DNA of 64,000 bases from Paenibacillaceae bacterium (GTDB taxonomy: Bacteria; Bacillota; Bacilli; Paenibacillales; CANHGK01), in contig CANHGK010000008.1 in NCBI GenBank assembly GCA_947460235.1, positions 13,453 to 77,452 on the forward strand, read 5' to 3'. Below are positions 1,268 to 17,438 of the stretch, piece by piece. Position 1 is the stretch's first letter; the number at the start of each line of letters is the position of its first letter. The position numbers were made by a program, and so were the translations under genes. The notes under the pieces are model-generated. The model made no database searches, was not told the origin of the DNA, and worked only from the letters and a program-made list of their open reading frames with translations.

Positions 1268-2296
1268 ATGCGATTACTACGGTTGGATCATGTCAAAGCT
1301 GGAATGATCATGATGAGCAATTTTGAAAAGTCACATCATAACATCATGATCAAAGAAGGAACTACTTTAACCGATTCGATGATCAACGCAATGCATCGCT
1401 GGGGTGTGAATTGGATTTATGTTTCTGGTGAGATAGAAACTAGAACAGCGTCCATTCCGGAATGGACGAAGGTTGAGACGTTTGAAGCGTTAAATGATGA
1501 ATTTGAAAATATTATTGAATGTATGAAGTATCACCGCGATTTACCAGCAAAACATCTAGATCAATTGCTCTGTAGATTGATCGTTGAACTTTCGGCGCAC
1601 AAAGCACAACTGTTTCAGTTGCGTGAAATTCGTTGTATTGAAAGAGATGATTTTTTACATGCATACCATGTCTGTGTACTTTCCTTAATGATTGGATTTC
1701 GGATGGAATTGCCATTTGAACAACTGAGAGCATTGGCGATCGGCGCATTTCTACATGACATTGGTAAATTTGACGTACATCATCTGGATTGTTCGTCCAA
1801 ACCAGAATTGCATCACACGTTTATTGGATATAAGAAGTTGAAAGGTGAACCGTTATTTCCTTTGCAATCATCACATGCGGCGTTAATGCATCACGAACAT
1901 GTGGATGGATCGGGAAAACCACGCGGGATAACAAGCAATGAAATGCATCAGATCGGTAAAATCGTCGGCATCGCGAACCGTTACGATCATTATTTTAGAG
2001 CATTAGCTCCATTTTCGGAAAATGATCCTCCTTTACAACACCATGATGTGTATGAACGAATGGTGGCTCAAGTGGGTGTCCAAAGTGATCATGATATTTT
2101 TCTGCATTTTTTGTCCTCTGTTGTCGTCTACCCTACAGGAGTTGAAGTGTTGTTGAATACGCATCAACATGCAATTGTGATCGTTCAACATCCTCACTTG
2201 CCTTCGCGGCCAATCATTCGTATCATAGACTCAGAACAAACTTTGCATGATTTGTCGAAAAATCCGAAATTGTTTATTATTGATGTGTTAACGTAA
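1268..2296 (+). CDS. HD-GYP-like domain protein with degenerate GYP motif (HHEHVDGSGKPRG)
   Basis: HD motif FLHDIGK and a HHExxDGxG-K-P block. The ATG at 1268 follows a GGAG RBS; the ORF-track start at 1253 lacks an RBS. Confidence 0.6.
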   Translation: MRLLRLDHVKAGMIMMSNFEKSHHNIMIKEGTTLTDSMINAMHRWGVNWIYVSGEIETRTASIPEWTKVETFEALNDEFENIIECMKYHRDLPAKHLDQLLCRLIVELSAHKAQLFQLREIRCIERDDFLHAYHVCVLSLMIGFRMELPFEQLRALAIGAFLHDIGKFDVHHLDCSSKPELHHTFIGYKKLKGEPLFPLQSSHAALMHHEHVDGSGKPRGITSNEMHQIGKIVGIANRYDHYFRALAPFSENDPPLQHHDVYERMVAQVGVQSDHDIFLHFLSSVVVYPTGVEVLLNTHQHAIVIVQHPHLPSRPIIRIIDSEQTLHDLSKNPKLFIIDVLT

Positions 2297-2302
2297 AGGA
2301 GA

Positions 2303-2542
2303 ATGACTATGTGGGTATATATCACGCCAGTGATCACGTTGATTGTAGGTCTAATAGGCGGCGCTGTAATTGGTTTTCAAGTTTTTAAGAAACAAATGAT
2401 GAGTCTCATGAATAACCCCGATCAAATGGCGTCGATGATGCGTCAAAATCCTGATATGTTAGAAAAGATGGGGCGTCAAATGGGCGCTAATTCCGCGCAA
2501 ATGAAAGCTGCAAAAAAAATGATGAATCGCCGTCCGCGATAA
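2303..2542 (+). CDS. yneF: UPF0154/YneF-like small membrane protein
   Basis: 79 aa with one N-terminal TM and a Met/Gln/Lys-rich tail (KKxMMxxMxxNP...MMRQ). RBS AAGGAG upstream. Confidence 0.5.
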   Translation: MTMWVYITPVITLIVGLIGGAVIGFQVFKKQMMSLMNNPDQMASMMRQNPDMLEKMGRQMGANSAQMKAAKKMMNRRPR

Positions 2543-2575
2543 AAGTTGCGAGAATGGCTACGGGGGACTTTCGAA

Positions 2576-3184
2576 ATGCCTAGTAAGGAATATCGCAATT
2601 CACATGTACAACAAAATCGCGAGCAATTGGAATTTCATGTGCGTGAAATTCTGCGACTTGTAGGTGAGAATCCTGAACGTGAAGGATTGATTGACACGCC
2701 TGCTCGCGTCGTAAGGATGTATGAAGAAATTTTTGGTGGTTACGCGGCGGATTCTGGGGAAGTGCTCGGGACACTTTTCGACGAAGCGCATGAAGAATTG
2801 GTTATTGTTAATGATATCGTGTTTTATAGTCAATGCGAACATCATATGGCACCATTTTTTGGGAAGGTCCATATAGGATATGTTCCAAGCGGGAAAATTT
2901 GTGGGCTAAGCAAATTTGCCCGACTTGTCGATACAGTAACGAAGCGTCTACAAGTTCAGGAACGAATTACTTCGCAATTGGCGGATTTAATTGCCGAAAC
3001 ATTAATTCCGCACGGCGTCATGGTTGTTGTCGAAGCAGAGCATCTTTGTATGTGCGCACGTGGTGTTCGAAAGTATGGAAGTCAAACGATTACATCTGCA
3101 GTGCGTGGACAATTTAAACGAGATGCTTCGTTACGTGGTGAATTTTTATCTTTGATTGGTAGAACGGCCGGCAAGTTGATTTAA
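2576..3184 (+). CDS. folE: GTP cyclohydrolase I FolE
   Basis: Conserved CEHHMAPF active-site block and [11 protein letters not shown] motif. ATG at 2576 follows a GGGGGA RBS. Confidence 0.85.
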
Positions 3185-3195
3185 TGAACATTGAA

Positions 3196-3252
3196 ATGTC
3201 GCGATACGAATGATTGATTTTGACGATCAAATTCGTTGCGACATTTTTTTAT
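3196..3252 (+). terminator. rho-independent terminator after folE
   Basis: Hairpin AATGTCGC...GCGACATT followed by a T7 run. Confidence 0.5.
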
Positions 3253-3277
3253 TCTCGATGAAAACATTATTTGAAAG

Positions 3278-6200
3278 ATGGTGTGGAACGTGAAAAAGAC
3301 ATGGATTGCATATCGATACCTACTCATCTGCGCAATTGTTTGCATCCTGTGGCTTCCTGCGTACTTAACTGCCTTAGCGGGCCCTGTCGGCGAAAAGGCT
3401 AACGCAATCCGTATTGCGAATTGGCCTAATGGATTTCAAAAAGATTCGGATTCGTTTCATGGTGGTGCATTTGATGGTAAGAATGTTTGGATGGCACCAT
3501 ATGATGCTGACCGTATCGTTAAGATTAATGTTGCAGATGGTGAGATGGGCTCAATTCGTGCTTTTCCAGATGGATACACGTATACGTCCGGAGCATTTAG
3601 TGGAGCAGTCTATGATGGCACTTCGGTTTGGTTCATTCCATTCAATGCAGAGCGGTTGATTAAGATTGATCCGATCACTCTAAAAGTTTCATATGGCCCA
3701 CAGTGGCCAAGTGATTTTAAGAAGATGCAATCCGCATTTGATGGCGGTGTTGTTATCGGTGATTATTTGTGGTTAATTCCCCATGCATCTGATAAATTAT
3801 TGCGTTTAAATATTAAAAATTTCGCGTGGGACGCGTATTCGAAATGGCCCAATAATTTTTCGCATGGTAATGGTGCATTTTCTGGTGGAGTAGCTTCGTT
3901 GGATGGAGGCACGCTTTGGTTGGTTCCGTCCGATGCGAATATGATCGTAAAAGTTAATGCTTCGAACGGTGAAATGACGGGAAACAATGCGTGGCCAATT
4001 GGATTTTCAAAAACGAATGGAGCATTTTCTGGAGGCGCTACAGATGGTAATGGTCTGTGGTTAGCACCAAAAAAAGCAGATAAATTGGTGCGACTTGATT
4101 TGGTGAGTGGTGGAATGACTAGTTTTGCGAAGTGGCCTGCGGGAATGTCAATTGGAATCAATGCGTTTTCTGGAGCGATATATGACGGGCGGGATATTTG
4201 GTTGACTCCGTATGGAGCGGATCGAATTGTTCGTGTCAAAACGAACGGAGAAATGAGTGCACCGATTACATGGCCAAATGGCTTAAACCGAGGGATTCAG
4301 GCGTTTCAAGGTTCGGTATTTGATGGTTCGGATTTATGGCTCATACCATCTTCGGCGGATGCTGTCTTGGAATTGGTTGGGAATCGAACTCCGACTGCGA
4401 ATGGATCAAGCATTCAATTAACTGAAGATATTCCATATAGCGGTTTGTTGTCAGCATCAGACCTGGATGCAGATCCGTTAAAATTTACGGTTGTCAAAAC
4501 ACCTTCTAAAGGTGTATTAACGTGGATAAATGATTCAACGGGAAACTATAAATATACTCCAAATCTAAATGCGAATGGATCGGATACCTTTACCTATCGG
4601 GTAAGTGATGGAGTTACCTTTTCTAGCGAGGCAACCGTTTCGGTTTCGATTGCAAATGAGAATGATCCACCTGTTGTGAATGCACTTACCATACAAGCGC
4701 GTGAAGATGAATCCAAAACTGGAATTGGGATCGCTAATGATCCAGAGTTAGATGCATTAGAATATCAGATTGTTTCAAATGGTTCAAAAGGAACGTTTAC
4801 TTTTACGAACAATAAGACCGGTGAATTTTTATATGTGCCAACACCGGATCAGAACGGAAGTGACGAAGTTTCGGTACGCGTTAAAGACGGGAAATTGTTT
4901 TCGAATACCGTTAAATGGCAAGTGAATATTGTTCCTGTTAATGATATGCCGATTGCAAAGGACGTTACATTGCAAACGAATGAAGATCTTGCTGTTCAAT
5001 CGAATTTGAAGGCTTCGGATATTGATGGCGATGCACTTTCCTATGAATTCATTCAACAACCAACGCATGGGAATGTGATGATCTCAGATATTACAAAAGG
5101 AACTGTGATTTATAAACCAGATGAAAATTATTTCGGTTCTGATCAATTTGTTTATACGGTATCAGATGGCCTTTTAACATCGGCGCCTGCGAATGTTAAA
5201 ATTAATATTGCACCGATTGACGATGCACCTGAATTAAGTAGTGCAAATTTTACAGTAGTTCAAGGCGTTTCATTGCATGAACAATTAACTGCTAGTGATT
5301 TGGAGAATGATCCGTTAACATTTGAAATCGTCTCACCTCCTACGCACGGTAAATGGAGTTGGATTAATGCAGCAGATGGGAGATTTACGTACGAACCCGA
5401 GTTGAATTGGACTGGAATTGAAACGATTCAAGTTGATGTAACGGATAATGTATTGAAATCGGAAGTGAAATCGATTTCGATTGTTGTTTCGCCGACCGTA
5501 AAAAAACCAGTTGAAGTAAAGCAAGAGTTTCAGGTGACGAGTGGTGTTTATACCGTTAATCGATTAAATGTTCCGAATTCTGAGCAGAATGATTTGACGT
5601 TTGCACTCATGCTGAATCCTGGAAAAGGGAAGTTTGAATGGATCGACAATCAACACGGGTATTTTTACTATCAATCCAAAAGTGGTTTTATTGGTGATGA
5701 CGAATTTGAATATTTAGTTAAGGATTCTGGCATATATTCTGAAATGGGTAAAATCATTTTGCACGTGTTGGCTGCAACGAATGCTCCAATTAATACGGTG
5801 AGCCCGACTCCTTCGCCTACGTCAGTCCCAACAAATAAGCCAACAGTGTCAATCACGCCATCACCTACACCTTTAATTGTGAATAGTCAATCTCCAGCAG
5901 TTTTGCTGTCAAATACACCAGCACCTACAGTATTGGTTTCAGCATCACCGAATGCGACTTCGGTGAATCAACAGAGTCATACGCCGTCTCCAACATCTGT
6001 AATTAATGTTTTGACAAATAATCCTAATGCAACAAGTTCATCAACACCGATTGCACCTGTTGCAACGCCAGTCGTGATTCCGCAAATTGTATACATTCCT
6101 TACTATATTGAAGTGACGCCGATTCCTACGGCTACTTCGACGCCTGTGATGATACCGAATCCTACACCAACGTTGGAAATTAAAAAAATAAACGTTACAG

Positions 6201-7207
6201 TTACACCGGTTCCGTTGTCGAAAGTGGTGAATATGCCAGAATTACATTCGAATCATGGATTGGACTGGGTGGAAATAGATGATCAGACATTGAATCAAGA
6301 AATTTCCAAAACAATCCCTTTGAAAATAATTGGCCAGAAAAATAAAGAAATTCAGTTCGAAGAAGTTGTTAATGATGATCAAAAGGTGTTATCAATGATT
6401 ATGAATGATCAATTGGTACTACGTCCGAATGATTCGTTTTTCACAATTAATTTTTCGGGAAAGCGAGTAAGCAAACCGGTGTCGATTACGATTAGGGCAT
6501 CGGATCGAATGGGGAATTGGTCTGATCAAATTGTGCTTGTTGATGTTCGCGAAGTTCAGCGTGTGGAAATTTCTGCATTGAATGATGTAGTACTACCTTT
6601 GCCTGAAGAATGGAAAATGCAATTGAATGCTGGAGCGAATTCGAAAAAAGCTGCGTTTATGAAGGTTGTTAAAATTCCTGTGACAATCGAAGTTCAAAAT
6701 CGCGATGAAGAAATGATGGTAAGTGCTCAGACGGATAGTGCGTGTGGTTTGCAAGTGGATGGGTTTAACGGGAAGTCAATATTGTCTGAGGACGAGTCCA
6801 GCCGAACATATTACTTGAATGTCGTTGTTACCGACCGTTCGTCATTACGTCCATGTCATGTAGAAGTGACAGCAACCAGTGAAGGTCTTTTGCCTCGCTC
6901 ACAATCGTTTACGATTACTCCCGAAAATGTTCGTCCGAAACTAAACTTTATTAATCCATTAATGGTTATTAAATCAAACCAGCGCAGATTAATCACAATT
7001 AAGGCGACCGATCCGAATCAAGATCGCTTGACGTATTCTGTTAAAGGTGGAAATGATCAGACGGTGAAATTGACTCGTCAAGGTAATGTTTGGTTTTTAA
7101 AACCTGCGCCTTCTTATAAAACGACCACAGGTGTTAAGTTTTCTGTCAGGGTTGAGGATGGAAGGGGCGGGTTTGATTCCAAAACGTTCCGAGTAATTGT
7201 TAAATAA
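3278..7207 (+). CDS. large secreted repeat protein: signal peptide, 7 propeller-like ~47-aa repeats, 4 cadherin/BIg-like ~95-aa repeats, Pro/Thr/Ser-rich linker, C-terminal domain
   Basis: N-terminal hydrophobic signal. Seven copies of AFSGGxxDGxxLWLxPxxADxIV(K/R)(V/I)...WPxGF. Four repeats with DxDxDPLxF...Y(T/K)PxxNxxGSDxFTYxVSDG. Low-complexity PT(S) stretch at nt ~5770-6230. No LPXTG or SLH motif seen. Confidence 0.6.
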   Translation: MVWNVKKTWIAYRYLLICAIVCILWLPAYLTALAGPVGEKANAIRIANWPNGFQKDSDSFHGGAFDGKNVWMAPYDADRIVKINVADGEMGSIRAFPDGYTYTSGAFSGAVYDGTSVWFIPFNAERLIKIDPITLKVSYGPQWPSDFKKMQSAFDGGVVIGDYLWLIPHASDKLLRLNIKNFAWDAYSKWPNNFSHGNGAFSGGVASLDGGTLWLVPSDANMIVKVNASNGEMTGNNAWPIGFSKTNGAFSGGATDGNGLWLAPKKADKLVRLDLVSGGMTSFAKWPAGMSIGINAFSGAIYDGRDIWLTPYGADRIVRVKTNGEMSAPITWPNGLNRGIQAFQGSVFDGSDLWLIPSSADAVLELVGNRTPTANGSSIQLTEDIPYSGLLSASDLDADPLKFTVVKTPSKGVLTWINDSTGNYKYTPNLNANGSDTFTYRVSDGVTFSSEATVSVSIANENDPPVVNALTIQAREDESKTGIGIANDPELDALEYQIVSNGSKGTFTFTNNKTGEFLYVPTPDQNGSDEVSVRVKDGKLFSNTVKWQVNIVPVNDMPIAKDVTLQTNEDLAVQSNLKASDIDGDALSYEFIQQPTHGNVMISDITKGTVIYKPDENYFGSDQFVYTVSDGLLTSAPANVKINIAPIDDAPELSSANFTVVQGVSLHEQLTASDLENDPLTFEIVSPPTHGKWSWINAADGRFTYEPELNWTGIETIQVDVTDNVLKSEVKSISIVVSPTVKKPVEVKQEFQVTSGVYTVNRLNVPNSEQNDLTFALMLNPGKGKFEWIDNQHGYFYYQSKSGFIGDDEFEYLVKDSGIYSEMGKIILHVLAATNAPINTVSPTPSPTSVPTNKPTVSITPSPTPLIVNSQSPAVLLSNTPAPTVLVSASPNATSVNQQSHTPSPTSVINVLTNNPNATSSSTPIAPVATPVVIPQIVYIPYYIEVTPIPTATSTPVMIPNPTPTLEIKKINVTVTPVPLSKVVNMPELHSNHGLDWVEIDDQTLNQEISKTIPLKIIGQKNKEIQFEEVVNDDQKVLSMIMNDQLVLRPNDSFFTINFSGKRVSKPVSITIRASDRMGNWSDQIVLVDVREVQRVEISALNDVVLPLPEEWKMQLNAGANSKKAAFMKVVKIPVTIEVQNRDEEMMVSAQTDSACGLQVDGFNGKSILSEDESSRTYYLNVVVTDRSSLRPCHVEVTATSEGLLPRSQSFTITPENVRPKLNFINPLMVIKSNQRRLITIKATDPNQDRLTYSVKGGNDQTVKLTRQGNVWFLKPAPSYKTTTGVKFSVRVEDGRGGFDSKTFRVIVK

Positions 7208-7222
7208 ACTAACATTATAATT

Positions 7223-7258
7223 TGACTTTGTGTGTAATGTTCGTGTATTATCATTTCA
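7223..7258 (+). promoter_or_regulatory. putative sigma-A promoter for the riboswitch-operon transcript
   Basis: TTGACT (7223) then ~18 nt then TATTAT, about 10 nt upstream of the riboswitch 5' end. Confidence 0.3.
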
Positions 7259-7274
7259 AGAAGATGAAAACACG

Positions 7275-7406
7275 ATATATCGACCTAGGGTTCCGTAGTT
7301 GTTGTTAATTTATATGACACACTAGCTGGTCCGAGAGGTAAAGAGTTCTGATGTTGATCTGTTTCAACCGATGAACTTACACACGGAGGGATAAAAGCCC
7401 GGGAGG
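7275..7406 (+). promoter_or_regulatory. guanidine-I riboswitch aptamer (ykkC/yxkD leader class)
   Basis: Conserved blocks CUAGGGUUCCG (7285-7295), GGUCCGAGAG (7328-7337) and ACACGGAGGGAUAAAAGCCCGGGAGG (7381-7406). Downstream gene context (TauA/NMT1-type ABC transporter plus ureohydrolase) is the classical guanidine-I context. Confidence 0.75.
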
Positions 7407-7431
7407 TTATGCATACTCCGCGGGCTTTTTG
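7396..7431 (+). terminator. riboswitch expression-platform terminator
   Basis: AGCCCGGGAG ... CUCCGCGGGCU stem with one bulge, followed by U5. The 5' arm is the 3' end of the aptamer, so the two structures are mutually exclusive. Confidence 0.6.
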
Positions 7432-7457
7432 TGTTCAAAAAAAGAGGAGGAATTGAG

Positions 7458-8501
7458 ATGAGCATGCCAGTAGCAATGAAATGGAGAAAGATGTTTGTGA
7501 TTTTTGCGGTAATCGTTGTATGCGTGTCAATGATGTTGTCAGGATGTGCAACGACGAATACTACGCAGAGTGAAACAGAGGGATCTTCAGATCAACCGAT
7601 TCAAATTGCACTGAGTCCTTGGCCGGGTTGGTACATCTGGTATTTGGCCGAGGAAAAAGGATTTTTCAAAAAACGTGGTGTGAATGTGGAACTGAAGTGG
7701 TTCCCTGTGTATAGCGATTCCTTGCAAGCATTATCTACGGGCCAAGTCGATGCAAATAGCCAGACATTGAGCGATACATTGGCGCCTCTTTCGAAGTCGA
7801 TTCCCTTAAAAGTGGTGTTGGTTAATGATAACTCGAATGGCGGCGATGCGATCGTAAGTAAGCCGGGCATCAACTCGATCGCTGACTTGAAAGGCAAAAC
7901 CGTTGCAACGGAACTTGGTACGGTCGACCATCTATTGCTGCTGACTGCTCTTGCGAATGCTGGAATGAAAGAAACAGACATCAATTATGTGAATATGACC
8001 GTCAATGATGCTGGACCTGCTTTTATTAATGGGAAAGTGGATGCGGCTGTGTTATGGGAGCCGTTCCAAACGAAAGCAGTTAAAGATGGCGGCGGAAAAG
8101 TATTATTCTCATCGAAAGAAACGCCTGGATTGATTCCTGATTTACTCGTGTTCAAAGCAGAAACAGTAGAGAAACGCGGCGATGATATTCAAAAAGTCGT
8201 CAACGCGTGGTTTGATGCATTAGCTGAATTGAAAGCTCATCCGGACGAGTCCATTGCCATTTTGGCGAAAAAAGCTGAGCAGACCCCAGCGGAGTTCAAA
8301 GAAGGATTGGATACGATCAAAGTGTTTACGAAAGCAGATAATATTAAAGCGTTTGATGCATTGGATGGATATGAGTCACTCTCCTTTACAGGCGGGAAAA
8401 CAGCGGAATTCTTACAAGGGTTGGAGATGGTTAGTTCCATTCCAGACGTAAAGGCAGCGCTTGAACCGAAGTTTGTGAAAGCTGCAGAAGCGGCGGAATA
8501 A
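7458..8501 (+). CDS. ABC transporter substrate-binding lipoprotein, NMT1/THI5 (SsuA/TauA-like) family
   Basis: Lipobox LSGC after signal peptide; NMT1-like periplasmic binding fold. ATG 7458 with a GGAGG RBS; the GTG at 7431 lies inside the terminator. Confidence 0.8.
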   Translation: MSMPVAMKWRKMFVIFAVIVVCVSMMLSGCATTNTTQSETEGSSDQPIQIALSPWPGWYIWYLAEEKGFFKKRGVNVELKWFPVYSDSLQALSTGQVDANSQTLSDTLAPLSKSIPLKVVLVNDNSNGGDAIVSKPGINSIADLKGKTVATELGTVDHLLLLTALANAGMKETDINYVNMTVNDAGPAFINGKVDAAVLWEPFQTKAVKDGGGKVLFSSKETPGLIPDLLVFKAETVEKRGDDIQKVVNAWFDALAELKAHPDESIAILAKKAEQTPAEFKEGLDTIKVFTKADNIKAFDALDGYESLSFTGGKTAEFLQGLEMVSSIPDVKAALEPKFVKAAEAAE

Positions 8502-8540
8502 TGGTTGGATGAATGGGATGGTTGGAGGAGGGCGAATCAA

Positions 8541-9299
8541 TTGAAGCAAAAAAAATATCTCGGATACTGGGCAATTAGTTCGTTTCTTCTCCTGTTTGGT
8601 GGATGGTTAGCGCTCAGTGAAAGCGGAGTGATGAATCCGACATTTTTGCCATCGCCTTTCGTGGTGTTCAAAACGATGGTGAAATTGCTCGGAACAGAGC
8701 AATATTGGACGCATATTGGCATGAGTTGTTTTCGAGTGGTAGCCGGTTTCTTGTTAGCGGTTGTAATTGGTGTACCACTTGGATTATTGGCAGGATATTC
8801 GAGGCGCGGAGCTGCATTTATTGAACCTCCGATGGAATTTATTCGTTATATGCCAGCAGTTGCGTTTATTCCGCTCGTGATGATATGGGCGGGGATCGGC
8901 GAATGGGCAAAAGTGATTATTATTTTTATCGGATGTTTTTTTCAGTTGGTGCTGATGGTAGCGGACATTACGAGGCGAGTAAATAAAGACTGGATCGATG
9001 CTGCGAGGACGATGGGTGCGACGCGCTGGGGTGTACTAGAGACGATCATTATTCCTGCGATCCGCCCAGAGTTGATGAATGGACTTCGATTATTGCTTGG
9101 ATGGGCTTGGACCTATTTGGTTGTTGCTGAGCTCGTCGCAGTAAATAGTGGTCTTGGATACGCAATTATGAAGGCGCAGCGGTTTTTGAATACAGATCAA
9201 ATTTTTGTTGGGATGATTGTGATCGGAGCACTAGGATTGATTAGTGATCGCGTATTCGCCTATTGTAACAAACGATTTTTCCCGTGGGCGCAATCCTAA
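8541..9299 (+). CDS. ABC transporter permease (binding-protein-dependent inner-membrane component)
   Basis: 6 TM with an EAA-like loop (AARTMGATRWGVLETIIIPAIRP). A TTG at 8541 follows GGAGGAGGG at the right spacing; an alternative ATG at 8505 has no RBS. Confidence 0.7.
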   Translation: MKQKKYLGYWAISSFLLLFGGWLALSESGVMNPTFLPSPFVVFKTMVKLLGTEQYWTHIGMSCFRVVAGFLLAVVIGVPLGLLAGYSRRGAAFIEPPMEFIRYMPAVAFIPLVMIWAGIGEWAKVIIIFIGCFFQLVLMVADITRRVNKDWIDAARTMGATRWGVLETIIIPAIRPELMNGLRLLLGWAWTYLVVAELVAVNSGLGYAIMKAQRFLNTDQIFVGMIVIGALGLISDRVFAYCNKRFFPWAQS

Positions 9300-9336
9300 G
9301 TGATGAGTGGGTTTGATAGATAGGGAGTGAATGTAG

Positions 9337-10092
9337 ATGTCAGCAGCTATAGAATTACAAAAACTCGGTAAAACGTTCGAGAGTAACCAAGGCATCGTCC
9401 ATGCACTTGAAGAAATCGAACTCTCCGTTCAAGCGGGAGAATTCGTGAGCGTACTTGGACCGAGTGGATGCGGCAAATCAACGATGCTTCGAATTTTGGC
9501 GGGACTAGAACCATATACGAGTGGACAAATCATTTGTGATGATCGCGTAATTACTGGTCCTGGTGCGGACCGTGGCATGGTTTTTCAGGCGTATACGCTT
9601 TTCCCGTGGTTAACCGTACGTGAAAATATCGAATATGGCCTCAAATTAGCAGGTAAACATATTTTTGAGCGTCGTCGTATTTCGGGGGCATGGCTCGATC
9701 GGATTGGATTATCGAGCTTTGCGAAGCACTATCCGAATCAATTGTCTGGTGGGATGAAACAGCGCGTGGCAATCGCACGTGCGTTAGCGAATAAACCGAA
9801 AGTTCTGCTCATGGACGAACCCTTTGGAGCGCTCGATGCACATACGAAATTAATGATGCAGCGGTTGTTGCAAGCATTGTGGGTGGATGAACGGCCGACG
9901 GTTGTGTTTATTACGCATGATGTTGATGAGGCGATTTATTTGGGGCAACGGGTCGTGGTGATGGGTGCAAGACCAGGGCGGATTGTAAAAGAATATCAGG
10001 TACACTTGCCAGAAAAACGCACCGAAGAAGTTCGAGGAAATGCACATTTTATTGAATTGCGAAAAATGTTATTACAAGATCTGGAACATTAA
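9337..10092 (+). CDS. ABC transporter ATP-binding protein
   Basis: Walker A GPSGCGKST, signature LSGGMKQR, Walker B LLMDEPFGALD. Confidence 0.85.
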   Translation: MSAAIELQKLGKTFESNQGIVHALEEIELSVQAGEFVSVLGPSGCGKSTMLRILAGLEPYTSGQIICDDRVITGPGADRGMVFQAYTLFPWLTVRENIEYGLKLAGKHIFERRRISGAWLDRIGLSSFAKHYPNQLSGGMKQRVAIARALANKPKVLLMDEPFGALDAHTKLMMQRLLQALWVDERPTVVFITHDVDEAIYLGQRVVVMGARPGRIVKEYQVHLPEKRTEEVRGNAHFIELRKMLLQDLEH

Positions 10093-10115
10093 ACAATTTA
10101 GAGAGAACATGGAGT

Positions 10116-11273
10116 GTGACGGATATGGCATTTTGGGATCAGCACGGATTAAACGCGCGGCGATTACAAAATAATGTGGAAGAATCAAAGGGAGATTTGC
10201 ATGGCATTCAGGCAGCGCATGCCGAGGCATTATTGCCAAGTACACGTGCAGACGCAGAAATTAAACGGGGTTTAGAGCTAGGACTTGAAGGTGCGGCAAG
10301 CATTGGTGATCGGACGATTTCTTGTTTTTCACGGGGCGAGTTGCCGCATTATGCGGGGATTAACACATTTTTGAAAATGCCGTATTTGGAAGATGTGCGA
10401 AGAGTCGGCGAGTATGATGCAGCAATTCTCGGTGTACCATTTGATATTGGTACGACCTATCGCTCAGGAACGCGTTTTGGTCCGCAGGCAATTCGCCGAA
10501 TTTCCGCTTTGTATCAAACGTACAATTATGAACTCGGTGTGGACTTGCGCGAGCAATTGAAACTATGCGATCTTGGAGATGTATTCACGATAGCGAATAT
10601 CGAGAAAAGTTTTGATCAAATTACAAAAGCCGTATCTCATGTAATGAGTCAAGGCACGATGCCGATTATTCTCGGTGGTGATCATTCAATCGGATATCCT
10701 TGTGTGCGCGGGGTCGCAGAAAACATTGACGGCGACATCGGAATTATTCATTTGGATCGTCATATCGACATTCAGGAAAAAGACATGGATGAGCGCATGC
10801 ATACGACGCCTTGGTTTCATGCAACCAATATCAAAAACGCAAAGCCGAAAAATCTCGTACAAATCGGGATCGGCGGCTGGCAAGTGCCGCGTGCCGGAGT
10901 TCAGGTAGGTCGTGAGCGCGGTACGACGATCATGACGATTAATGATGTCGAGACGCTTGGGATTGATAAAGTTGCTGAGATGGCGCTTGAAGTGGCGTGG
11001 AAAGGCTGTAAAGCGGTTTACTTGAGCTTTGATATTGATTCAATTGATTGCGGATTTGTGCCAGGGACGGGATGGCCTGAACCGGGAGGCTTTTTACCGC
11101 GCGAAGCACTTAAGTTAATGCAATTGGTGGCAAAAGAAGGACTGGCAGCGATGGAAGTTGTTGAAGTTGCGCCGGCCTATGATATTAGTGATACGACGGC
11201 GTTGCTCGCGGCACGTGCGGTACTTGATGTACTGGCAACGATGACGGCGCACGGAAAAATTGGAGGAAAGTAA
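10116..11273 (+). CDS. arginase/agmatinase-family ureohydrolase (candidate guanidine hydrolase)
   Basis: Ureohydrolase metal-site motifs GGDHSIGYP, HLDRHIDI and SFDIDSIDCGFVPGTG. The start is uncertain (GTG 10116 or ATG 10125). The stop overlaps the cbiM start. Confidence 0.7.
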   Translation: MTDMAFWDQHGLNARRLQNNVEESKGDLHGIQAAHAEALLPSTRADAEIKRGLELGLEGAASIGDRTISCFSRGELPHYAGINTFLKMPYLEDVRRVGEYDAAILGVPFDIGTTYRSGTRFGPQAIRRISALYQTYNYELGVDLREQLKLCDLGDVFTIANIEKSFDQITKAVSHVMSQGTMPIILGGDHSIGYPCVRGVAENIDGDIGIIHLDRHIDIQEKDMDERMHTTPWFHATNIKNAKPKNLVQIGIGGWQVPRAGVQVGRERGTTIMTINDVETLGIDKVAEMALEVAWKGCKAVYLSFDIDSIDCGFVPGTGWPEPGGFLPREALKLMQLVAKEGLAAMEVVEVAPAYDISDTTALLAARAVLDVLATMTAHGKIGGK

Positions 11274-11933
11274 ATGCACATCCCTGACGGATTTTTGGAT
11301 GCCAAAACATGGATCAGTACAACGCTACTTGGCGGGGCGGTGGTTATGTTGGCTTCGCGTAATGCCCAAGTAGGTTTGAAACGTGAACAAGTTCCCAAAA
11401 TGGGTCTGTTAGGGGCATTTATTTTTGCGACGCAAATGGTTAATTTTCCGATTGCTGGAGCAACTTCAGGACATTTTCTCGGCGGTGCAATGGCGGCAAT
11501 TTTGTTTGGACCTTGGGTCAGTGTGTTGTTGATGAGTGCAGTGCTGATTATTCAAGCGTTTATTTTTCAAGATGGTGGTGTAACCGTGCTGGGAGCAAAC
11601 ATCTTGTGTACAGGAGTTCTCGGTAGTTTTGCAGGGTATGGGATGTATCGTTTCCTTGGAGTACGGGGGTTTCAATGGCTTAGTGAATCAGTCAAAATTT
11701 TCACGGCTGCGTGGTGTTCAATTGTAGCTGCGGCGAGTGGTGTTTCGTTGTTACTTGCTTTATCAGGTACAATGCCACTTGCCATAGGATTACCGGCCAT
11801 GACAGGTTGGCATAGTTTGATTGGGATTGGTGAAGGCTTGATTAGTGTTTGGGTAATCGCTTATTGGCGCAAGGCGCAGGCCGTCGCTTCACCGATATTG
11901 GTTGATACGAATCAAAGCGGTGAACACCGATGA
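11274..11933 (+). CDS. cbiM: CbiM/NikM substrate-specific component of Ni/Co transporter
   Basis: Begins MHIPDGFLD, the processed N-terminus typical of CbiM/NikM. About 6 TM. The ATG directly abuts the upstream stop. Confidence 0.8.
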   Translation: MHIPDGFLDAKTWISTTLLGGAVVMLASRNAQVGLKREQVPKMGLLGAFIFATQMVNFPIAGATSGHFLGGAMAAILFGPWVSVLLMSAVLIIQAFIFQDGGVTVLGANILCTGVLGSFAGYGMYRFLGVRGFQWLSESVKIFTAAWCSIVAAASGVSLLLALSGTMPLAIGLPAMTGWHSLIGIGEGLISVWVIAYWRKAQAVASPILVDTNQSGEHR

Positions 11934-12199
11934 AGTTGCCGAATATGAAGTTATGGATCGGTGTTGTCGTAGTAATGGTTGTTTGTGGTGTCTTATCGTA
12001 TTTTTCTTCAACATCACCGGATGGACTCGAGCGCGTGGCAGTTGACCTAGGATTTTCTAATCAAGAGAAAACGTATTGGTCGAATGCGCCAGTAGCGAAT
12101 GGTCAATATGGAATCATGGGATGGATAGGCGTCGCACTCGTATTCGGACTCGTCTGGTTATGGGGACGCATCGTTACGAAAGGCAAAGATCGGGGATAG
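11930..12199 (+). CDS. PDGLE-domain small membrane protein (CbiN-like partner of CbiM)
   Basis: 89 aa with 2 TM and an SPDGLERVA motif. ATGA start/stop overlap with cbiM. Confidence 0.55.
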   Translation: MKLPNMKLWIGVVVVMVVCGVLSYFSSTSPDGLERVAVDLGFSNQEKTYWSNAPVANGQYGIMGWIGVALVFGLVWLWGRIVTKGKDRG

Positions 12200-12203
12200 T
12201 TAC

Positions 12204-13757
12204 ATGAAAAAAAGTGCACAATCGATTAAATATCGTACAGCGGGATTGCTCGTTGTACTCATGAGCATGGTGCTATGGTCGGACGAGCGTGTGTTAATTG
12301 GATATAGTGTAGTTCTTTGTTTATTCATGTGGTGGAGCGGGTTATCGCTTCGAGAGGCGGGGCAACGATTGTTGTTACTCATTCCTTTCGGTGCGGGAAC
12401 ACTCGCTTTTTTGCCGTTCCATGGACATGAGGTTGTGGTCGGTGATGTGATGGGGTGGCACGTATATGAAGATGGACTCACGAAGGCGATTGGTTTGCTA
12501 TTAAAAATGGTCAATGCGAGTTTGATCCTTAGTATGATGTTGCATAAGATTGATTCGGGGCAATTTTTTCATAGTTTGCGTGCGCTCGGATTGCCGAAAT
12601 TATTGACTGAGCTGTTGCAACTGATGATGCGCTATGTTCATGTGCTAGGGGAAGAAGCTCGGTCCATGGTACTTGCTCAAAAGGCGCGAGGATTTCGGGC
12701 ACAAGGTTGGTGGTGGTCGATCAACAATTATCGACGTTTTGGGCAGTTGATGGGTGTTTTATTTGTGCGAAGTTTACGGCGCAGTGAGCGAGTTGATTTG
12801 GCGATGCGTTCACGCGGGGAACGTGAATGGTTTGGGGGTACTGACATGGAAACGTCTATGGAAAAATCGTTAAGTGGTCGCTCGGAATGGGCCGTAGAAA
12901 TGAAGGGTGTCGGTTACTCCTATGCAGGAAGTAACTCACTAGCACTGCGCGGAATCGATTTGTCGATTCGAAGTGGGAGTAAAACGGTATTGATGGGGAT
13001 GAATGGTGCGGGGAAATCGACGCTCATTTCGTTATTGAACGGACTGGCGCAGGTCTCAAAGGGAATGTATCGTTTGTTCGGACAAGAAATTACGGAGAAA
13101 AATGCGATGCATGCGAGGCGTGGTGTCGGTGTCGTTTATCAGGACCCTGATGATCAATTGTTTTCGCCAACGGTCTCAGAAGACATCGCATATGGTCCAT
13201 CGAATATGGGCCTATCGGAATCGGAAATTGAAGATCGTGTTACATATGCGATTGGTGCAGTTGGGTTGAGCGCTTTGGCAGATAAGTCTCCGTTTGAACT
13301 TAGTTACGGACAGAAGCGGCGAGTTGCAATTGCCGGTGTGATGGCGATGCGACCACCAATGATGGTGCTCGATGAACCAATGGCCTATCTTGATCCGCGT
13401 GGTCGGGATGAATTGCAGGCATTGCTTGAACAGTTGCATTTGATGGGAACAACCCTCATCGTAGCGACGCACGATGTTGATTTTGCTGCAGAATGGGCAG
13501 ATCATGTGATCATTTTGCGCGACGGGAAAGTACTTGCTGAAGGGGATGTTTCGCTTTTATTCGATGAAAAAATTGTGTATGAAGCAGGGCTGCATTTGCC
13601 GAGGTTGGTCAGACCATTTCGATTGTTGCAAGGCGCAGGCGATGTGAAACCGCGCACGGTTCGACAAGCGGCGCAAGAAATGTGGCGTTTGATTTTGAAA
13701 GGGACGAATGCAGAAACGAAGCATGACGAGCAAAATCAACTCAAATCTTTTCGTTGA
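12204..13757 (+). CDS. fused CbiQ (T component) - CbiO (ABC ATPase) of Ni/Co transporter
   Basis: N-terminal ~220-aa polytopic membrane domain. C-terminal ABC domain with Walker A GMNGAGKST, signature LSYGQKRR and Walker B MVLDEPMAYLD. Confidence 0.75.
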   Translation: MKKSAQSIKYRTAGLLVVLMSMVLWSDERVLIGYSVVLCLFMWWSGLSLREAGQRLLLLIPFGAGTLAFLPFHGHEVVVGDVMGWHVYEDGLTKAIGLLLKMVNASLILSMMLHKIDSGQFFHSLRALGLPKLLTELLQLMMRYVHVLGEEARSMVLAQKARGFRAQGWWWSINNYRRFGQLMGVLFVRSLRRSERVDLAMRSRGEREWFGGTDMETSMEKSLSGRSEWAVEMKGVGYSYAGSNSLALRGIDLSIRSGSKTVLMGMNGAGKSTLISLLNGLAQVSKGMYRLFGQEITEKNAMHARRGVGVVYQDPDDQLFSPTVSEDIAYGPSNMGLSESEIEDRVTYAIGAVGLSALADKSPFELSYGQKRRVAIAGVMAMRPPMMVLDEPMAYLDPRGRDELQALLEQLHLMGTTLIVATHDVDFAAEWADHVIILRDGKVLAEGDVSLLFDEKIVYEAGLHLPRLVRPFRLLQGAGDVKPRTVRQAAQEMWRLILKGTNAETKHDEQNQLKSFR

Positions 13758-13783
13758 GTGAATAGATAATCGAGCGTATAATT
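13752..13783 (+). promoter_or_regulatory. putative sigma-A promoter for PilZ gene
   Basis: TTGAGT, 17-nt spacer, TATAAT. Confidence 0.35.
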
Positions 13784-13819
13784 TGATTATCTAATTTCGC
13801 GACAAATGAGGTGTTTAGC

Positions 13820-14233
13820 TTGGACGCAGTTTCAAATCAACGAGTGCATCCGCGGATCTCGATTAGTGGAAAGATCAAATTTTCGTTTATTGCATTTAAA
13901 ATTGGTGAAAACGGCAAATATGAAGAAGATATTTCAATTATTGAAACACAAATTCGCGATATTTCCCTTGGCGGCATCAGCTTTGAAGATGTGCGAAGTT
14001 ATGAGCCTGGCATGAAAGGGTATATTTTTATTGTAATCGGACGCAGAAGATATGCACTCGTTGGTGAAGTTGTACGGTGTATTTCAGGCCAAAATGCGTA
14101 TCAAGTCGGAATCGCATTAGATAAAAATTTGAATGATGATGGAATGTTTGAACCGAGTGAAGAAATTGTGGAATTAATTCAGCGCTTAGAAGTATTACTT
14201 GAACATGATCCGAATTATACGAACATCACGTAA
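13820..14233 (+). CDS. PilZ-domain protein (c-di-GMP receptor family), paralog A
   Basis: RxxxR motif (QRVHPR) and DxSxGG motif (RDISLGG). TTG 13820 follows a GAGGTG RBS. Confidence 0.65.
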   Translation: MDAVSNQRVHPRISISGKIKFSFIAFKIGENGKYEEDISIIETQIRDISLGGISFEDVRSYEPGMKGYIFIVIGRRRYALVGEVVRCISGQNAYQVGIALDKNLNDDGMFEPSEEIVELIQRLEVLLEHDPNYTNIT

Positions 14234-14247
14234 TTGGAGGACGGACT

Positions 14248-14598
14248 ATGTTTCAGCGCATTCCATTGGATGAGCCGATTAAGACGCATTGGGTGCTGCG
14301 TTTTTTTATTTTGTTTTTACCTTGTTTGTTCGTTCGGTTTGCCGTTGGTCCAATTCAAGCACATTTAGGAATTTTGCCGGGCAGTTTTTACTGGTTCGGC
14401 ATTTTATATTTTCCGATGACAAATTGGACGATATATTGGGTGATGTTTACGATTCGTGTAGGAATCAATCGGATCGCCGGAAATGAGCGGATTACCGTTC
14501 CTAAATTGCGGAAATTTTATCGTTGGTACTTAAACGTGCCGGGTGGATTGGTATTATCGGAGTTGGTATTTCAGGGCTATTTGTATAATGCGGGATAA
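14248..14598 (+). CDS. hypothetical membrane protein
   Basis: 116 aa, 3 predicted TM. GGAGG RBS upstream; no recognisable motif. Confidence 0.4.
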   Translation: MFQRIPLDEPIKTHWVLRFFILFLPCLFVRFAVGPIQAHLGILPGSFYWFGILYFPMTNWTIYWVMFTIRVGINRIAGNERITVPKLRKFYRWYLNVPGGLVLSELVFQGYLYNAG

Positions 14599-14611
14599 GA
14601 ATGGACGTGGA

Positions 14612-14640
14612 TCACTCATTCGAGTGGTCTTTTTTTTGCA
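14612..14640 (+). terminator. weak rho-independent terminator
   Basis: GATCACTC-ATTC-GAGTGGTC hairpin followed by T8. Confidence 0.35.
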
Positions 14641-14735
14641 GAAAAATCCAGTGTCACAATAGGAAAGGCAGGGGAATCTTTGTGTGGAAAAGAATTGTAT
14701 ACAGATAAATGCTACTAGGGAAAAGGAGGGGTTTT

Positions 14736-17438
14736 GTGTTTTGGAAAAGACGAAGACTTCACATTGGAATTATGATAACGATGATCTTTTGGATCGTTTT
14801 ATTGATGGCTAGTGAATCTGTATATGCTGCACAATCTGAGAAAATTGTGAATTTAGAGCAAGGATGGGCATATTCAAAGGCAGAGGTGAAACCGGACCAG
14901 ATGGATTCGGTGAAGTGGGAAGCACTAAATCAATTATCGGATAGCAAACTTTCTGAACAAAATTCGGAAACGCCGGTCGTTTCATTTCGGATTACATTGC
15001 CAAATGTGGACTGCGTGGAATGTGTGTTATCATTCGAGCGATATATTCGTTCATATGTGTTATATGTAGATGGGCACGAAGTTGCATCTTCAGGTGGTGG
15101 GGCTACCAGTCAATTGTTGTCACTGGGAAAACCAGATGCAATTATTGATTTACCGGGGACGCCAAAAGGGAAACAATTATTACTTGTGGAGAATATTTCA
15201 CACCGATCAACGCCGCTTTATTCACCAATTTATTTTGGTGATAAAGAAACAATAATACGAAAACAGTTGTCCGGGGAACGTACGCAAATCATTATATCAA
15301 TGCTCGTATTGATGACGGGATTGATTTCGACGATGTTGTATTTATCGCTCAAGAAAGATGCAGCTTTTTTGAATCTCGGATTATGTGCAACGAATATTGG
15401 GTTGTATATGCTAAGTTGTTCGGGCATGGTTCATTATTTCTCTAATGATATGCCATTTTGGGATTTTCTCGAATATTTGACTCTTTATACGATGCCGTTG
15501 ACGACGTGGTATTATTTCCGCAACTTTGTCACATCTAAACCAAGTTTACATTGGTCACTCGTGGCCGGAAATGGTGGATTTATTTTATTTTCGTTACTTC
15601 AACAAGTTCGTGGCATTGCATTGTTTGAGTACGTTGGGATTCAGCGCGTCGTATTTCTAGTATCGCTGGTGTTTATTATTGCAGAATTGGTCCGTTCTGC
15701 ACGAGCCGGGAATCGTGAGGCAAAAATGGTTGTAGCTGCCTTTATTATTACGTGCTTAATTACCATGTGTAAAATTATTGCACTCTTTTTTAATGTGGAT
15801 TTAACGAATTTAACTTCCTATGCCGGTGGATTTTTCATGTTGTCACAATTGTTCGTGATGACTGACCGTTTCCGCAGAATGAATGAAGAACTGAGCATTC
15901 ATTCCAAGAATCTGGAACGATTCAATGAAGTTATGGAAGGGGAAGTGCATAGTCGTACGAAGCAAGTGCGTACGTTGATGGACAATGTAGCGCAAGGATT
16001 TTTAACGGTTGGGCCGAATTTGATTGTGGAAAAAGAGTTTTCCAAGGCGTGTATTAAATTACTTGGTGAGGAACCTGCGGGCCGAAATATTGTTGATTTA
16101 TTAACACGGGGCGATGCATCGAAAACGGAATGGCTGGAGAGGATGTTCCGTGATGTATTCGAAACGACTGAGCAATTCAAAATTGATATGTATGTTCAAT
16201 TACTGCCGAGTGAAATTGTCAGAGATGGTAGAACGTTGGGGATTTCGATGGAAGTCGTTCGCAGTGTGAATGAAAAACCTGAACATCTGATTTTAATGTT
16301 TAACGATCTAACGAAACAACGCGCACTCGAAGAAAAATTGAAAAATGAAGAGAAGCTAATGCGTATGATTGTGACGGTTTTGTCGCGTTCACGAGATTAT
16401 GCGGACTTAGTAGATGATTACCATCAATTTGTCGACTACGACTTGCCGAGTCTATTGAAAAATGTTCATTCGGAAATGACGCCAGATGTTCGGGTGCTCA
16501 GACTCGTGCATACGTTCAAAGGAAATTTCGCACAAATGAACTCCATTCTCTTAGCGGCACATTTGCATGAGATTGAGCACACGATTAAACGCGGGGAGCA
16601 TGAGCGTTTGGAGGAGTGGGCATTTAGGGTTTCGCAATTCGAATGGAAACAAGCACTGCAAAAAGAACAGCAACGCATGTTTGAAATTTTACCGGCGCAT
16701 CATTGGAACGATCAAAAAAATGCGATCCCAGTGCCGCGTAATACATTACTACATTTGCGCGATTATATTTTAGATAACTTACCAAATGATTTGGCGTCAT
16801 CGTTGGTAAAAGAGGTTGAACGTTTATACCAAAAATCGTTTGCGAGTTTATTCGAAGCGGTTGCTGAAAACACTTCTCAACTTGCAGAACGAATAAATAA
16901 AATGATCGAACCAGTGACCATCGAAGGCGGGGAATGGTTTGTTGATTTGGAACCTTGGTATGGATGGTCAAAATCATTAATTCACATTTCGCGTAATCAA
17001 GTAGATCACGGGATCGAGGATCCGGATATACGCATCGATACCGGCAAAGAATTATATGGTAAAATAAGCATTTCGATTGCCCAAGATTTGAATCATGTCA
17101 CCATTCGTTTTGCAGATGATGGCGCTGGAATTAATGTCGATAAATTACGTAAAAAGTTAATTAGTAATCAAATGATTTCTGTCGCACAAGTAGCAACGTT
17201 GCCAGATCATGAGTTGTATCGTTATTTATTTATGGATTCAGTAAGTACGAGGGATTCTGTATCGGAGTTGTCAGGTCGTGGCGTAGGTCTGGCGAAAGTG
17301 CTTGAGGAGACTGAAAAACTTGGTGGAACAATCGAAGTGGAGTCTGTGGTTGGTATTGGAACGACATTTATTTTCTGCATTCCCGTCAGAGATGGGTTGC
17401 CAGTAGCACAACAATCACATCGTGAAATCGCATCGTAA
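14736..17438 (+). CDS. 7TMR-DISM sensor fused to HPt domain and CheA-type HATPase (class-II-like histidine kinase)
   Basis: Signal peptide KRRR...VYA-AQ, ~150-aa extracytoplasmic domain and 7 TM. HPt-like HTFKGNFAQMN. CheA-type N box HISRNQVDHGIE, G1 DDGAGIN, G2 GRGVGL. No HisKA H-box and no CheW-like P5 domain. GTG 14736 follows GGAGGGG. Confidence 0.7.
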   Translation: MFWKRRRLHIGIMITMIFWIVLLMASESVYAAQSEKIVNLEQGWAYSKAEVKPDQMDSVKWEALNQLSDSKLSEQNSETPVVSFRITLPNVDCVECVLSFERYIRSYVLYVDGHEVASSGGGATSQLLSLGKPDAIIDLPGTPKGKQLLLVENISHRSTPLYSPIYFGDKETIIRKQLSGERTQIIISMLVLMTGLISTMLYLSLKKDAAFLNLGLCATNIGLYMLSCSGMVHYFSNDMPFWDFLEYLTLYTMPLTTWYYFRNFVTSKPSLHWSLVAGNGGFILFSLLQQVRGIALFEYVGIQRVVFLVSLVFIIAELVRSARAGNREAKMVVAAFIITCLITMCKIIALFFNVDLTNLTSYAGGFFMLSQLFVMTDRFRRMNEELSIHSKNLERFNEVMEGEVHSRTKQVRTLMDNVAQGFLTVGPNLIVEKEFSKACIKLLGEEPAGRNIVDLLTRGDASKTEWLERMFRDVFETTEQFKIDMYVQLLPSEIVRDGRTLGISMEVVRSVNEKPEHLILMFNDLTKQRALEEKLKNEEKLMRMIVTVLSRSRDYADLVDDYHQFVDYDLPSLLKNVHSEMTPDVRVLRLVHTFKGNFAQMNSILLAAHLHEIEHTIKRGEHERLEEWAFRVSQFEWKQALQKEQQRMFEILPAHHWNDQKNAIPVPRNTLLHLRDYILDNLPNDLASSLVKEVERLYQKSFASLFEAVAENTSQLAERINKMIEPVTIEGGEWFVDLEPWYGWSKSLIHISRNQVDHGIEDPDIRIDTGKELYGKISISIAQDLNHVTIRFADDGAGINVDKLRKKLISNQMISVAQVATLPDHELYRYLFMDSVSTRDSVSELSGRGVGLAKVLEETEKLGGTIEVESVVGIGTTFIFCIPVRDGLPVAQQSHREIAS

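Follow-up and report, generated by a model that had tools for sequence, protein, structure and literature searches.

The stretch of DNA analysed here, referred to as the window, comprises 64,000 nucleotides (64 kb) of contig CANHGK010000008.1 from a Paenibacillaceae bacterium and carries seven genes on the same strand, the fourth of which encodes an arginase-fold enzyme and is designated gdmH. Three genes for a predicted ATP-binding cassette (ABC) importer precede gdmH and three genes for an energy-coupling factor (ECF) metal importer follow it, with intergenic gaps across the seven genes of 3, 37, 32, 0, -4 and 4 nt, and the whole set, which is presumably co-transcribed, lies behind a predicted guanidine-I riboswitch (Table 1). 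It is very probable that gdmH encodes an orthologue of the guanidine hydrolase GdmH within a guanidine-inducible seven-gene assimilation operon, the ECF module of which supplies a metal, most likely Ni2+. The enzyme family has been known since 2021-2022, and its control by a riboswitch and its association with an ABC importer have likewise been published.

An open reading frame (ORF) of 385 aa with a GTG start is present at 10116..11273 on the plus strand and matches the Pfam Arginase profile (PF00491) with an E-value of 7.9e-81, the alignment extending over positions 2-277 of the 280 in the profile. The likelier start of gdmH is ATG 10125, since a GGAG motif at 10111-10114 lies ten nt upstream of this codon, while GTG 10116 is one nt past the GGAG, and since homologues align only from residue 4 on. 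A 382-aa protein from a public gene caller (P0001) is 100 % identical to the window protein, the nearest relatives of which are found in Paenibacillaceae (Paenibacillus, Cohnella and metagenome-assembled genomes) at 82-88 % identity. The original prediction, made from the sequence of the window, named three ureohydrolase blocks, and all three were located in ORF 10116-11273, with GGDHS at aa 187-191 (nt 10674-10688), (L)DRHID at aa 213/214-218 (nt 10755-10769) and SFDIDSIDC at aa 304-312 (nt 11025-11051). It also described the stop codon of the gene as overlapping the start of cbiM; the close link between the two genes stands but the overlap does not, TAA 11271-11273 being followed by ATG 11274-11276 (TAAATG) with no shared base, such that the genes abut with a spacer of zero nt.

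Two experimentally studied enzymes served as references for the family placement of the window protein, the guanidinase of Nitrospira inopinata (9FEK) and GdmH (Sll1077) of Synechocystis (7OI1/7ESR). Guanidine hydrolysis has been shown experimentally for both (PMC11410670, PMC8390497, PMC12186494), and both favour guanidine over agmatine with a kcat/KM that is orders of magnitude higher (PMC11410670, PMC8390497). A search of the PDB with the window protein gave 9FEK as the best match (526 bits, E 3.7e-157) and 7ESR/7OI1 as the second (503 bits, E 4.5e-150), the next best being the guanidinobutyrase 3NIO (168 bits, E 2.7e-48), with all other ureohydrolases at or below 168 bits and agmatinases, metformin hydrolase, arginases and formiminoglutamases ranking below 3NIO. 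The window protein is 64.0 % identical to the N. inopinata guanidinase and 62.8 % identical to Synechocystis GdmH (7ESR), with identities of 31.8 % to GbuA (3NIO), 31.6 % to E. coli SpeB (7LOL) and 25.8 % to human ARG1 (1WVA). In a neighbour-joining tree of 58 sequences, comprising the window protein, 9FEK, Synechocystis GdmH, GbuA, SpeB, ARG1 and 52 database relatives (the SpeB and ARG1 sequences being identical to 7LOL and 1WVA), the window protein was placed inside the guanidinase clade with a bootstrap value of 92/100, apart from agmatinase, guanidinobutyrase and arginase.

All six metal ligands of the window protein (H190, D214, H216, D218, D306 and D308) are identical to those of both characterised guanidinases, the N. 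inopinata ligands being H182, D207, H209, D211, D299 and D301 (PMC11410670). The same holds for T114, H229, W320 and E350, residues tied to guanidine hydrolysis. Guanidine specificity is attributed to a Thr/Trp pair, T97/W305 in Synechocystis and T105/W313 in N. inopinata, together with H222 and E344 (PMC11410670). At the Thr position GbuA, SpeB and ARG1 carry S, S and Q respectively, with T at the Trp position. Alignment with the characterised guanidinases, an agmatinase, an arginase and a guanidinobutyrase was what the original prediction had proposed as a check, and it showed the ligands to be kept and the window protein to group with the guanidinases rather than among canonical Mn-agmatinases or formiminoglutamases. 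The call of a GdmH-type guanidine hydrolase is in this way supported by the PDB scores, the identities, the clade bootstrap of 92/100, the retained Thr/Trp pair and the guanidine-I riboswitch ahead of the operon. As judged from sequence, guanidine is the predicted substrate of the window protein, and Ni is its presumed metal.

In public databases the window protein and its close relatives are named 'agmatinase' or 'agmatinase family protein', probably in part because the protein passes the cutoff of the agmatinase equivalog TIGR01230 by 0.7 bit (175.0 vs 174.3). Taken at face value, these names and this score would make it a Mn-dependent agmatinase of the SpeB type that converts agmatine to putrescine and urea. 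Such an activity is extremely unlikely, given an identity to SpeB of 31.6 % against 63-64 % to the guanidine-preferring enzymes, a pocket-closing Trp (W320) and a Thr (T114) that stand where SpeB has Thr and Ser, and an operon that lies behind a guanidine riboswitch and holds no polyamine genes, with a second agmatinase model (NF002564) scoring 219 and so remaining below its cutoff of 302.

The central metal-binding block, DAHxD in other ureohydrolases and DRHID here, was singled out in the original prediction as atypical. The exchange of Ala for Arg is real and common to the clade; altered first-shell residues, which had also been envisaged, were not borne out, as the D, H and D ligands are unchanged and only the non-ligand second residue differs. 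In a comparison set of 80 related gdmH loci (numbered L001 onwards), 80/80 read D-R-H-[V/L/I/A]-D, and both characterised guanidinases read DRHVD. Among 50 %-identity cluster representatives, Arg at the second position of DxHxD was restricted to proteins sharing no less than 37 % identity with the window protein. Nearly all of these Arg-bearing representatives are either fragments or close relatives of the GdmH clade, and intact ureohydrolases of greater distance carry A, S, T, C, N, D or E at this position. Because Arg is limited in this set to the GdmH clade and proteins close to it, DRHxD is, on the strength of these alignments, a valid diagnostic signature of the clade. This clade-specific Arg (R215) stands beside the first Asp ligand and could act as a second-shell determinant that biases the site to Ni over Mn; no discussion of a role for the DRHxD Arg in Ni selection was found in the literature searched.

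The leader ahead of the operon matches the full guanidine-I (ykkC) riboswitch model RF00442 (positions 1-107) with a score of 58.9 bits (E 5e-10 in a 501-nt search). This match came from a scan of the leader in E-value mode, a scan of the whole window at the Rfam gathering threshold having reported no riboswitch because the score is below the gathering score of 63, owing to loop insertions of 21 and 24 nt and a weaker P1. The orthologous leaders of six Paenibacillaceae loci score 67-90 bits, over the gathering cut-off. The cores CTAGGGTTCCG, CTGG.CCGAGAG and CACGGA.GGA.AAA.GCC.GGGAG are invariant in 7/7 leaders (the window and six orthologues), and compensatory changes occur in P1 and P1b of the aptamer. 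The 5′ arm of the intrinsic terminator, AAAAGCCCGGGAG, overlaps the 3′ end of the aptamer (P3), with the hairpin folding at -22.4 kcal/mol (z -3.75; 0/200 shuffles fold equally well) and a hairpin followed by a T-run being present in 6/6 orthologous leaders. A terminator-type ON switch is the usual design of the guanidine-I class (PMC12704784). The site upstream of the aptamer is the top promoter-like site in 7000-14800, with 10/12 matches, this being a consensus match only, of a kind that occurs in that region at chance frequency.

The three genes between the leader and gdmH are predicted to encode a GimABC-like guanidine ABC importer. The ORF of the substrate-binding protein is listed from GTG 7431, which lies inside the terminator U-tract, with ATG 7458 behind GAGGAGG at 7444-7450 being the likelier start; as a start at ATG 7458 gives a signal peptide with the lipobox LSGC, the protein would be a lipoprotein. 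It scores 211.5 against TIGR01728 SsuA_fam, above the cutoff of 163.5, which is the family given for Synechocystis Sll1080/GimA (Wang 2021, Suppl. Data 3). The best NCBIfam relatives of the permease are of the SaoP/TauC/SsuC type, the gene being kept upstream of gdmH in the Paenibacillaceae loci, and those of the ATPase are NitT/TauT-type ATPases. The same family labels are attached to Synechocystis sll1080-82 (Wang 2021, Suppl. Data 3), genes now named GimABC, and the KD of Synechocystis GimA for guanidine is ~97 nM (PMC12704784).

Both the leader and the binding protein bear on whether this GdmH-clade hydrolase might have a different small guanidino compound (methylguanidine or guanylurea, for example) as its physiological substrate, guanidine being only a side substrate. 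The possibility was raised by the authors of the N. inopinata study, the characterised guanidinases having a high KM for guanidine (~14 mM for N. inopinata; PMC11410670), and clade members with a changed gating residue do exist, T replacing W in L016, L017 and P0121. In the window protein, however, T, H, W and E are all canonical, the guanidine-I aptamer core is intact in a riboswitch class described as highly guanidine-specific (PMC11410670), and the adjoining substrate-binding protein shares its family with a protein that binds guanidine at nanomolar concentrations (PMC12704784), making a different principal substrate quite unlikely. The three proteins with Thr for the gating Trp (PGTGTPEPGG; 63-71 % identity) may themselves, to judge by this exchange, have a different substrate range; in L016 (Neobacillus drentensis) and L017 (Bacillus sp. 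MUM 116) gdmH is found at 8001-9146 with neither gimABC nor cbiM nearby.

Downstream of gdmH, the CbiM-type S component is nearer to Thermoanaerobacter NikM2 (4M58, 2e-23) than to Rhodobacter CbiM (5X3X, 7e-13), and its Met1-His2 and His67 align with those of 4M58. The start of the PDGLE gene overlaps the cbiM stop by 4 nt. The third gene joins CbiQ (PF02361 1.4e-27, aa 16-205) to CbiO (ABC_tran 9.1e-29, aa 248-394; ECF_ATPase TIGR04521 3.7e-71). As a rule an ECF transporter requires two ATPase domains for each T component, and a 1:1 fusion of Q and O is odd. In the window and in seven Paenibacillaceae loci (L001-3, L007-9 and L013) the fusion reads as one ORF from stop to stop, with CbiQ and CbiO being two ORFs in Bacillaceae loci (L022, L035, L036 and L039). 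A sequencing frameshift was considered as the source of the fusion and rejected, the fusion being kept in the seven related loci. The CbiM/PDGLE/CbiQ-CbiO module is probably a Ni importer.

Table 1. Features of the gdmH operon and of the genes that follow it, in window coordinates.
Feature	Coordinates	Strand	Basis or remark
Promoter-like site, Sigma-70/SigA type	7222..7251	+	TTGACT-18 nt-TATTAT, ~22 nt upstream of aptamer
Guanidine-I (ykkC) riboswitch aptamer	7274..7407	+	RF00442
Intrinsic terminator (expression platform)	7393..7431	+	Hairpin 7393-7405/7416-7429, then U-tract
GimA-like substrate-binding lipoprotein	7458..8501	+	NMT1 PF09084 3.7e-28
GimB-like ABC permease	8505..9299	+	BPD_transp_1 9.2e-28
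GimC-like ABC ATPase	9337..10092	+	ABC_tran 1.9e-34
gdmH, arginase-fold guanidine hydrolase (predicted)	10125..11273	+	382 aa from ATG 10125; 385 aa if GTG 10116
CbiM/NikM-type S component (predicted Ni2+)	11274..11933	+	CbiM PF01891 4.8e-54
PDGLE-domain small membrane protein, CbiN/NikN position	11930..12199	+	PDGLE PF13190 6.6e-10
Fused CbiQ (T component)-CbiO (ATPase), 517 aa	12204..13757	+	CbiQ PF02361, ABC_tran
PilZ-domain gene	13811-14233		After operon
116-aa membrane protein gene	14248-14598		After operon

Across the comparison set the order riboswitch-gimABC-gdmH-cbiM is kept in L001-3, 5, 7-9 and 13, and gdmH-cbiM is also found in L022, L035, L036 and L039 (loci from Ammoniphilus, Cytobacillus and Neobacillus). 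When the first two ORFs after gdmH were classified by Pfam in the 80 loci, CbiM was counted 11 times, PDGLE nine times, HypA five times and CobW/HypB four times, such that no other specific family is as common in this position as CbiM and PDGLE; a PDGLE ORF follows CbiM in 9 related loci. No HypA/HypB was detected in the window by tblastn with the E. coli HypA and HypB sequences and by HypB/UreG motif scans, nor was UreG found there by motif scans, and the same HypA/HypB scans did detect both proteins in Planctomycetota loci, with hypA-hypB downstream of gdmH. Urease clusters (UreC and UreG motifs) adjoin the gdmH operon in nine loci (L003, L007, L018, L026, L027, L031-33 and L067), those of L003 (~10900-13100) and L007 (~1500-3700) being in close relatives with the ECF module.

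Further arrangements were observed in the same set. In Planctomycetota loci L042 (9122-10303), L047 (9146-10300), L053 (5565-6737) and L072 (9136-10311) a second, tandem gdmH paralogue is followed by hypA-hypB; these paralogues are 59-62 % identical to the window protein and keep DRHxD, in a layout reminiscent of the two-gene metformin/dimethylguanidine hydrolase operons. In alkaliphilic and halophilic Bacillaceae (L037, L040, L045, L046, L049, L050, L052, L054, L057-59, L061, L063 and L066) a CbiO-like ATPase 45-50 % identical to that of the window comes directly after gdmH, and most of these loci have a CbiM-like gene a few kb off, sometimes on the opposite strand, an arrangement that is a rearranged version of the enzyme-importer linkage. 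The urease region of L007 also contains an Rfam match to the 5′ ureB small RNA.

Several points weigh against reading the operon as a guanidine-induced unit with its own Ni supply. The window aptamer falls short of the Rfam gathering score and its P1 is interrupted, and the likeness of the substrate-binding protein to Synechocystis GimA is judged from the shared TIGRFAM family and gene position. No urease was found within the 64-kb window by motif scans, and a HypA/HypB pair could be encoded elsewhere in the genome. As to the metal, each site in the crystallised N. inopinata guanidinase was occupied by one Ni and one Mn (PMC11410670), so that a pure di-Ni centre is not certain, and whether a CbiM-type S component carries Ni or Co is not legible from its sequence, the NCBIfam names for the module all reading 'cobalt' with all scores below cutoffs. 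The mixed Ni/Mn site and the cobalt names, to which those of Pfam can be added, are also what favours regarding CbiM/PDGLE/CbiQO as a Co or mixed Ni/Co importer, either merely adjacent to gdmH or supplying Co (or Ni/Mn) to an enzyme that is not strictly Ni-dependent, and the metal-binding MH...H67 motif is common to Ni and Co S components. This is unlikely, since the gdmH-cbiM spacer is zero and the adjacency is kept across two Bacillota families, since the module is nearer to NikM2, adjoins a urease cluster in L003 and L007 and has NCBIfam CbiM equivalog scores that are all under their cutoffs, and since neither a cobalamin riboswitch (Rfam gathering-threshold scan of the whole 64 kb) nor B12 biosynthesis genes were found in the window. 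Ni as the metal supplied by the module has its parallel in characterised systems, GdmH and the related metformin hydrolase being Ni-dependent and the metformin operon also having a Ni importer (PMC12186494, PMC11399263, PMC10927577).

The genes on either side of the operon are none of them related to guanidine metabolism. The PilZ-domain gene and the gene for a 116-aa membrane protein that follow the operon are probably a separate unit, as they have their own promoter-like site (TTGAGT-17-TATAAT at 13754-13782) and a terminator-like hairpin (14609-14630). Upstream, 3278-7207 encodes a secreted protein of 1309 aa that contains four Big_9/cadherin-like repeats and a linker rich in Pro, Thr and Ser, and downstream, 14709-17438 encodes a 909-aa 7TMR-DISM histidine kinase, with QueG, an HD protein, GTP cyclohydrolase I, an FNT transporter, aconitase and D-Ala-D-Ala ligase among the further neighbours.

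These features can be combined in a working model of the operon. Without guanidine the leader RNA would form the terminator and transcription would halt, while in the presence of guanidine the aptamer would fold and hold a GCCC segment in P3, such that the terminator is blocked and RNA polymerase reads through. Read-through would lead to co-expression of the GimABC-like importer, GdmH and the CbiM/PDGLE/CbiQ-CbiO ECF importer, with the GimABC-like proteins bringing guanidine into the cell and the ECF importer supplying the metal needed by GdmH, most likely Ni2+. GdmH, as a binuclear-metal hydrolase of the arginase fold, would then convert free guanidine to urea and ammonium, and the urea would be passed to a urease encoded elsewhere. 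In this model the Ni supply step in the Paenibacillaceae lineage would be met by a dedicated importer, where the Synechocystis operon has the HypA/HypB-like chaperones GhaA and GhaB.

The closest counterpart in gene content is the GdmH operon of Synechocystis sp. PCC 6803, which comprises a guanidine-I riboswitch, gdmH/sll1077, ghaA, ghaB and gimABC/sll1080-82. Both have an enzyme of the same clade, with the ligands and the T, H, W and E residues identical, the same riboswitch class in the design of a terminator-type ON switch, and an ABC importer of the NitT/TauT type beside gdmH. The two differ in that the order in the window is reversed, with the importer placed before gdmH under a single leader, whereas the Synechocystis genes form two transcription units under NtcA (PMC12704784), and in that tblastn and motif scans found no HypA/HypB-like counterpart of GhaA/GhaB in the 64 kb of the window, where an ECF importer comes after gdmH instead. 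HypA/HypB-like GhaA/GhaB are typical of cyanobacterial gdmH loci rather than universal. The N. inopinata locus, which encodes the closest solved structure, consists of a guanidine-I riboswitch, an APC permease and the guanidinase, and unlike the operon of the window it encodes neither an ABC transporter nor a metal importer, having the APC permease instead. The N. inopinata guanidinase is riboswitch-controlled with no Ni chaperone genes nearby, and its Ni-loading route was called unclear (PMC11410670). As N. inopinata is also without them, co-encoding of ghaAB/HypAB is not a strict criterion for the GdmH clade.

The metformin/dimethylguanidine hydrolase operons (hypA/hypB, mfmAB or mefH, hupE/ureJ) combine a Ni-dependent ureohydrolase with a Ni uptake gene, as is predicted here. 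Metformin hydrolase differs from the window protein in being heteromeric with one inactive subunit, and scores at most 135 bits (8RYI/8SNF) in the PDB search; its operons have HypAB chaperones and a permease of the HupE/UreJ type rather than an ECF transporter, with no riboswitch reported. The downstream module of the window resembles NikMNQO/CbiMNQO importers (TtNikM2 4M58, RcCbiMQO 5X3X) in its CbiM-fold S component with Met-His and His67, its partner with two transmembrane segments, CbiQ and CbiO, and departs from them in the Q-O fusion, the PDGLE-type small subunit and the predicted control by guanidine. The usual control of NikMNQO/CbiMNQO importers is by NikR or a B12 riboswitch, as Rodionov et al. 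reportedly described in 2006. No main-text mention of a CbiM/ECF importer together with GdmH or a guanidine riboswitch was found in the literature searched, with row env-82 of a supplementary table listing the same gene order without comment (Wang et al. 2021).

An ECF importer in the position of GhaA/GhaB is a modest variant of the known arrangement, conserved in Paenibacillaceae and some Bacillaceae, and nothing in the operon overturns current understanding. A bolder proposal, possible although on balance doubtful, is that GdmH in these bacteria is metallated without a HypA/HypB-type chaperone, the guanidine riboswitch inducing a dedicated ECF Ni importer whose Q and O subunits are fused, and R215 biasing the site to Ni; if this were true, a raised Ni supply alone would be sufficient for the correct loading of GdmH. 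The operon, in which a riboswitch that senses the substrate would induce a metal importer along with the enzyme, is as such a natural test case for how GdmH acquires Ni without GhaA/GhaB, a point raised by the study of the comammox enzyme (PMC11410670). More broadly, the window protein and hundreds of its relatives labelled 'agmatinase' should be read as guanidine hydrolases, a relabelling that would shift predictions of nitrogen metabolism in soil Bacillota towards a route from guanidine via urea to ammonium.

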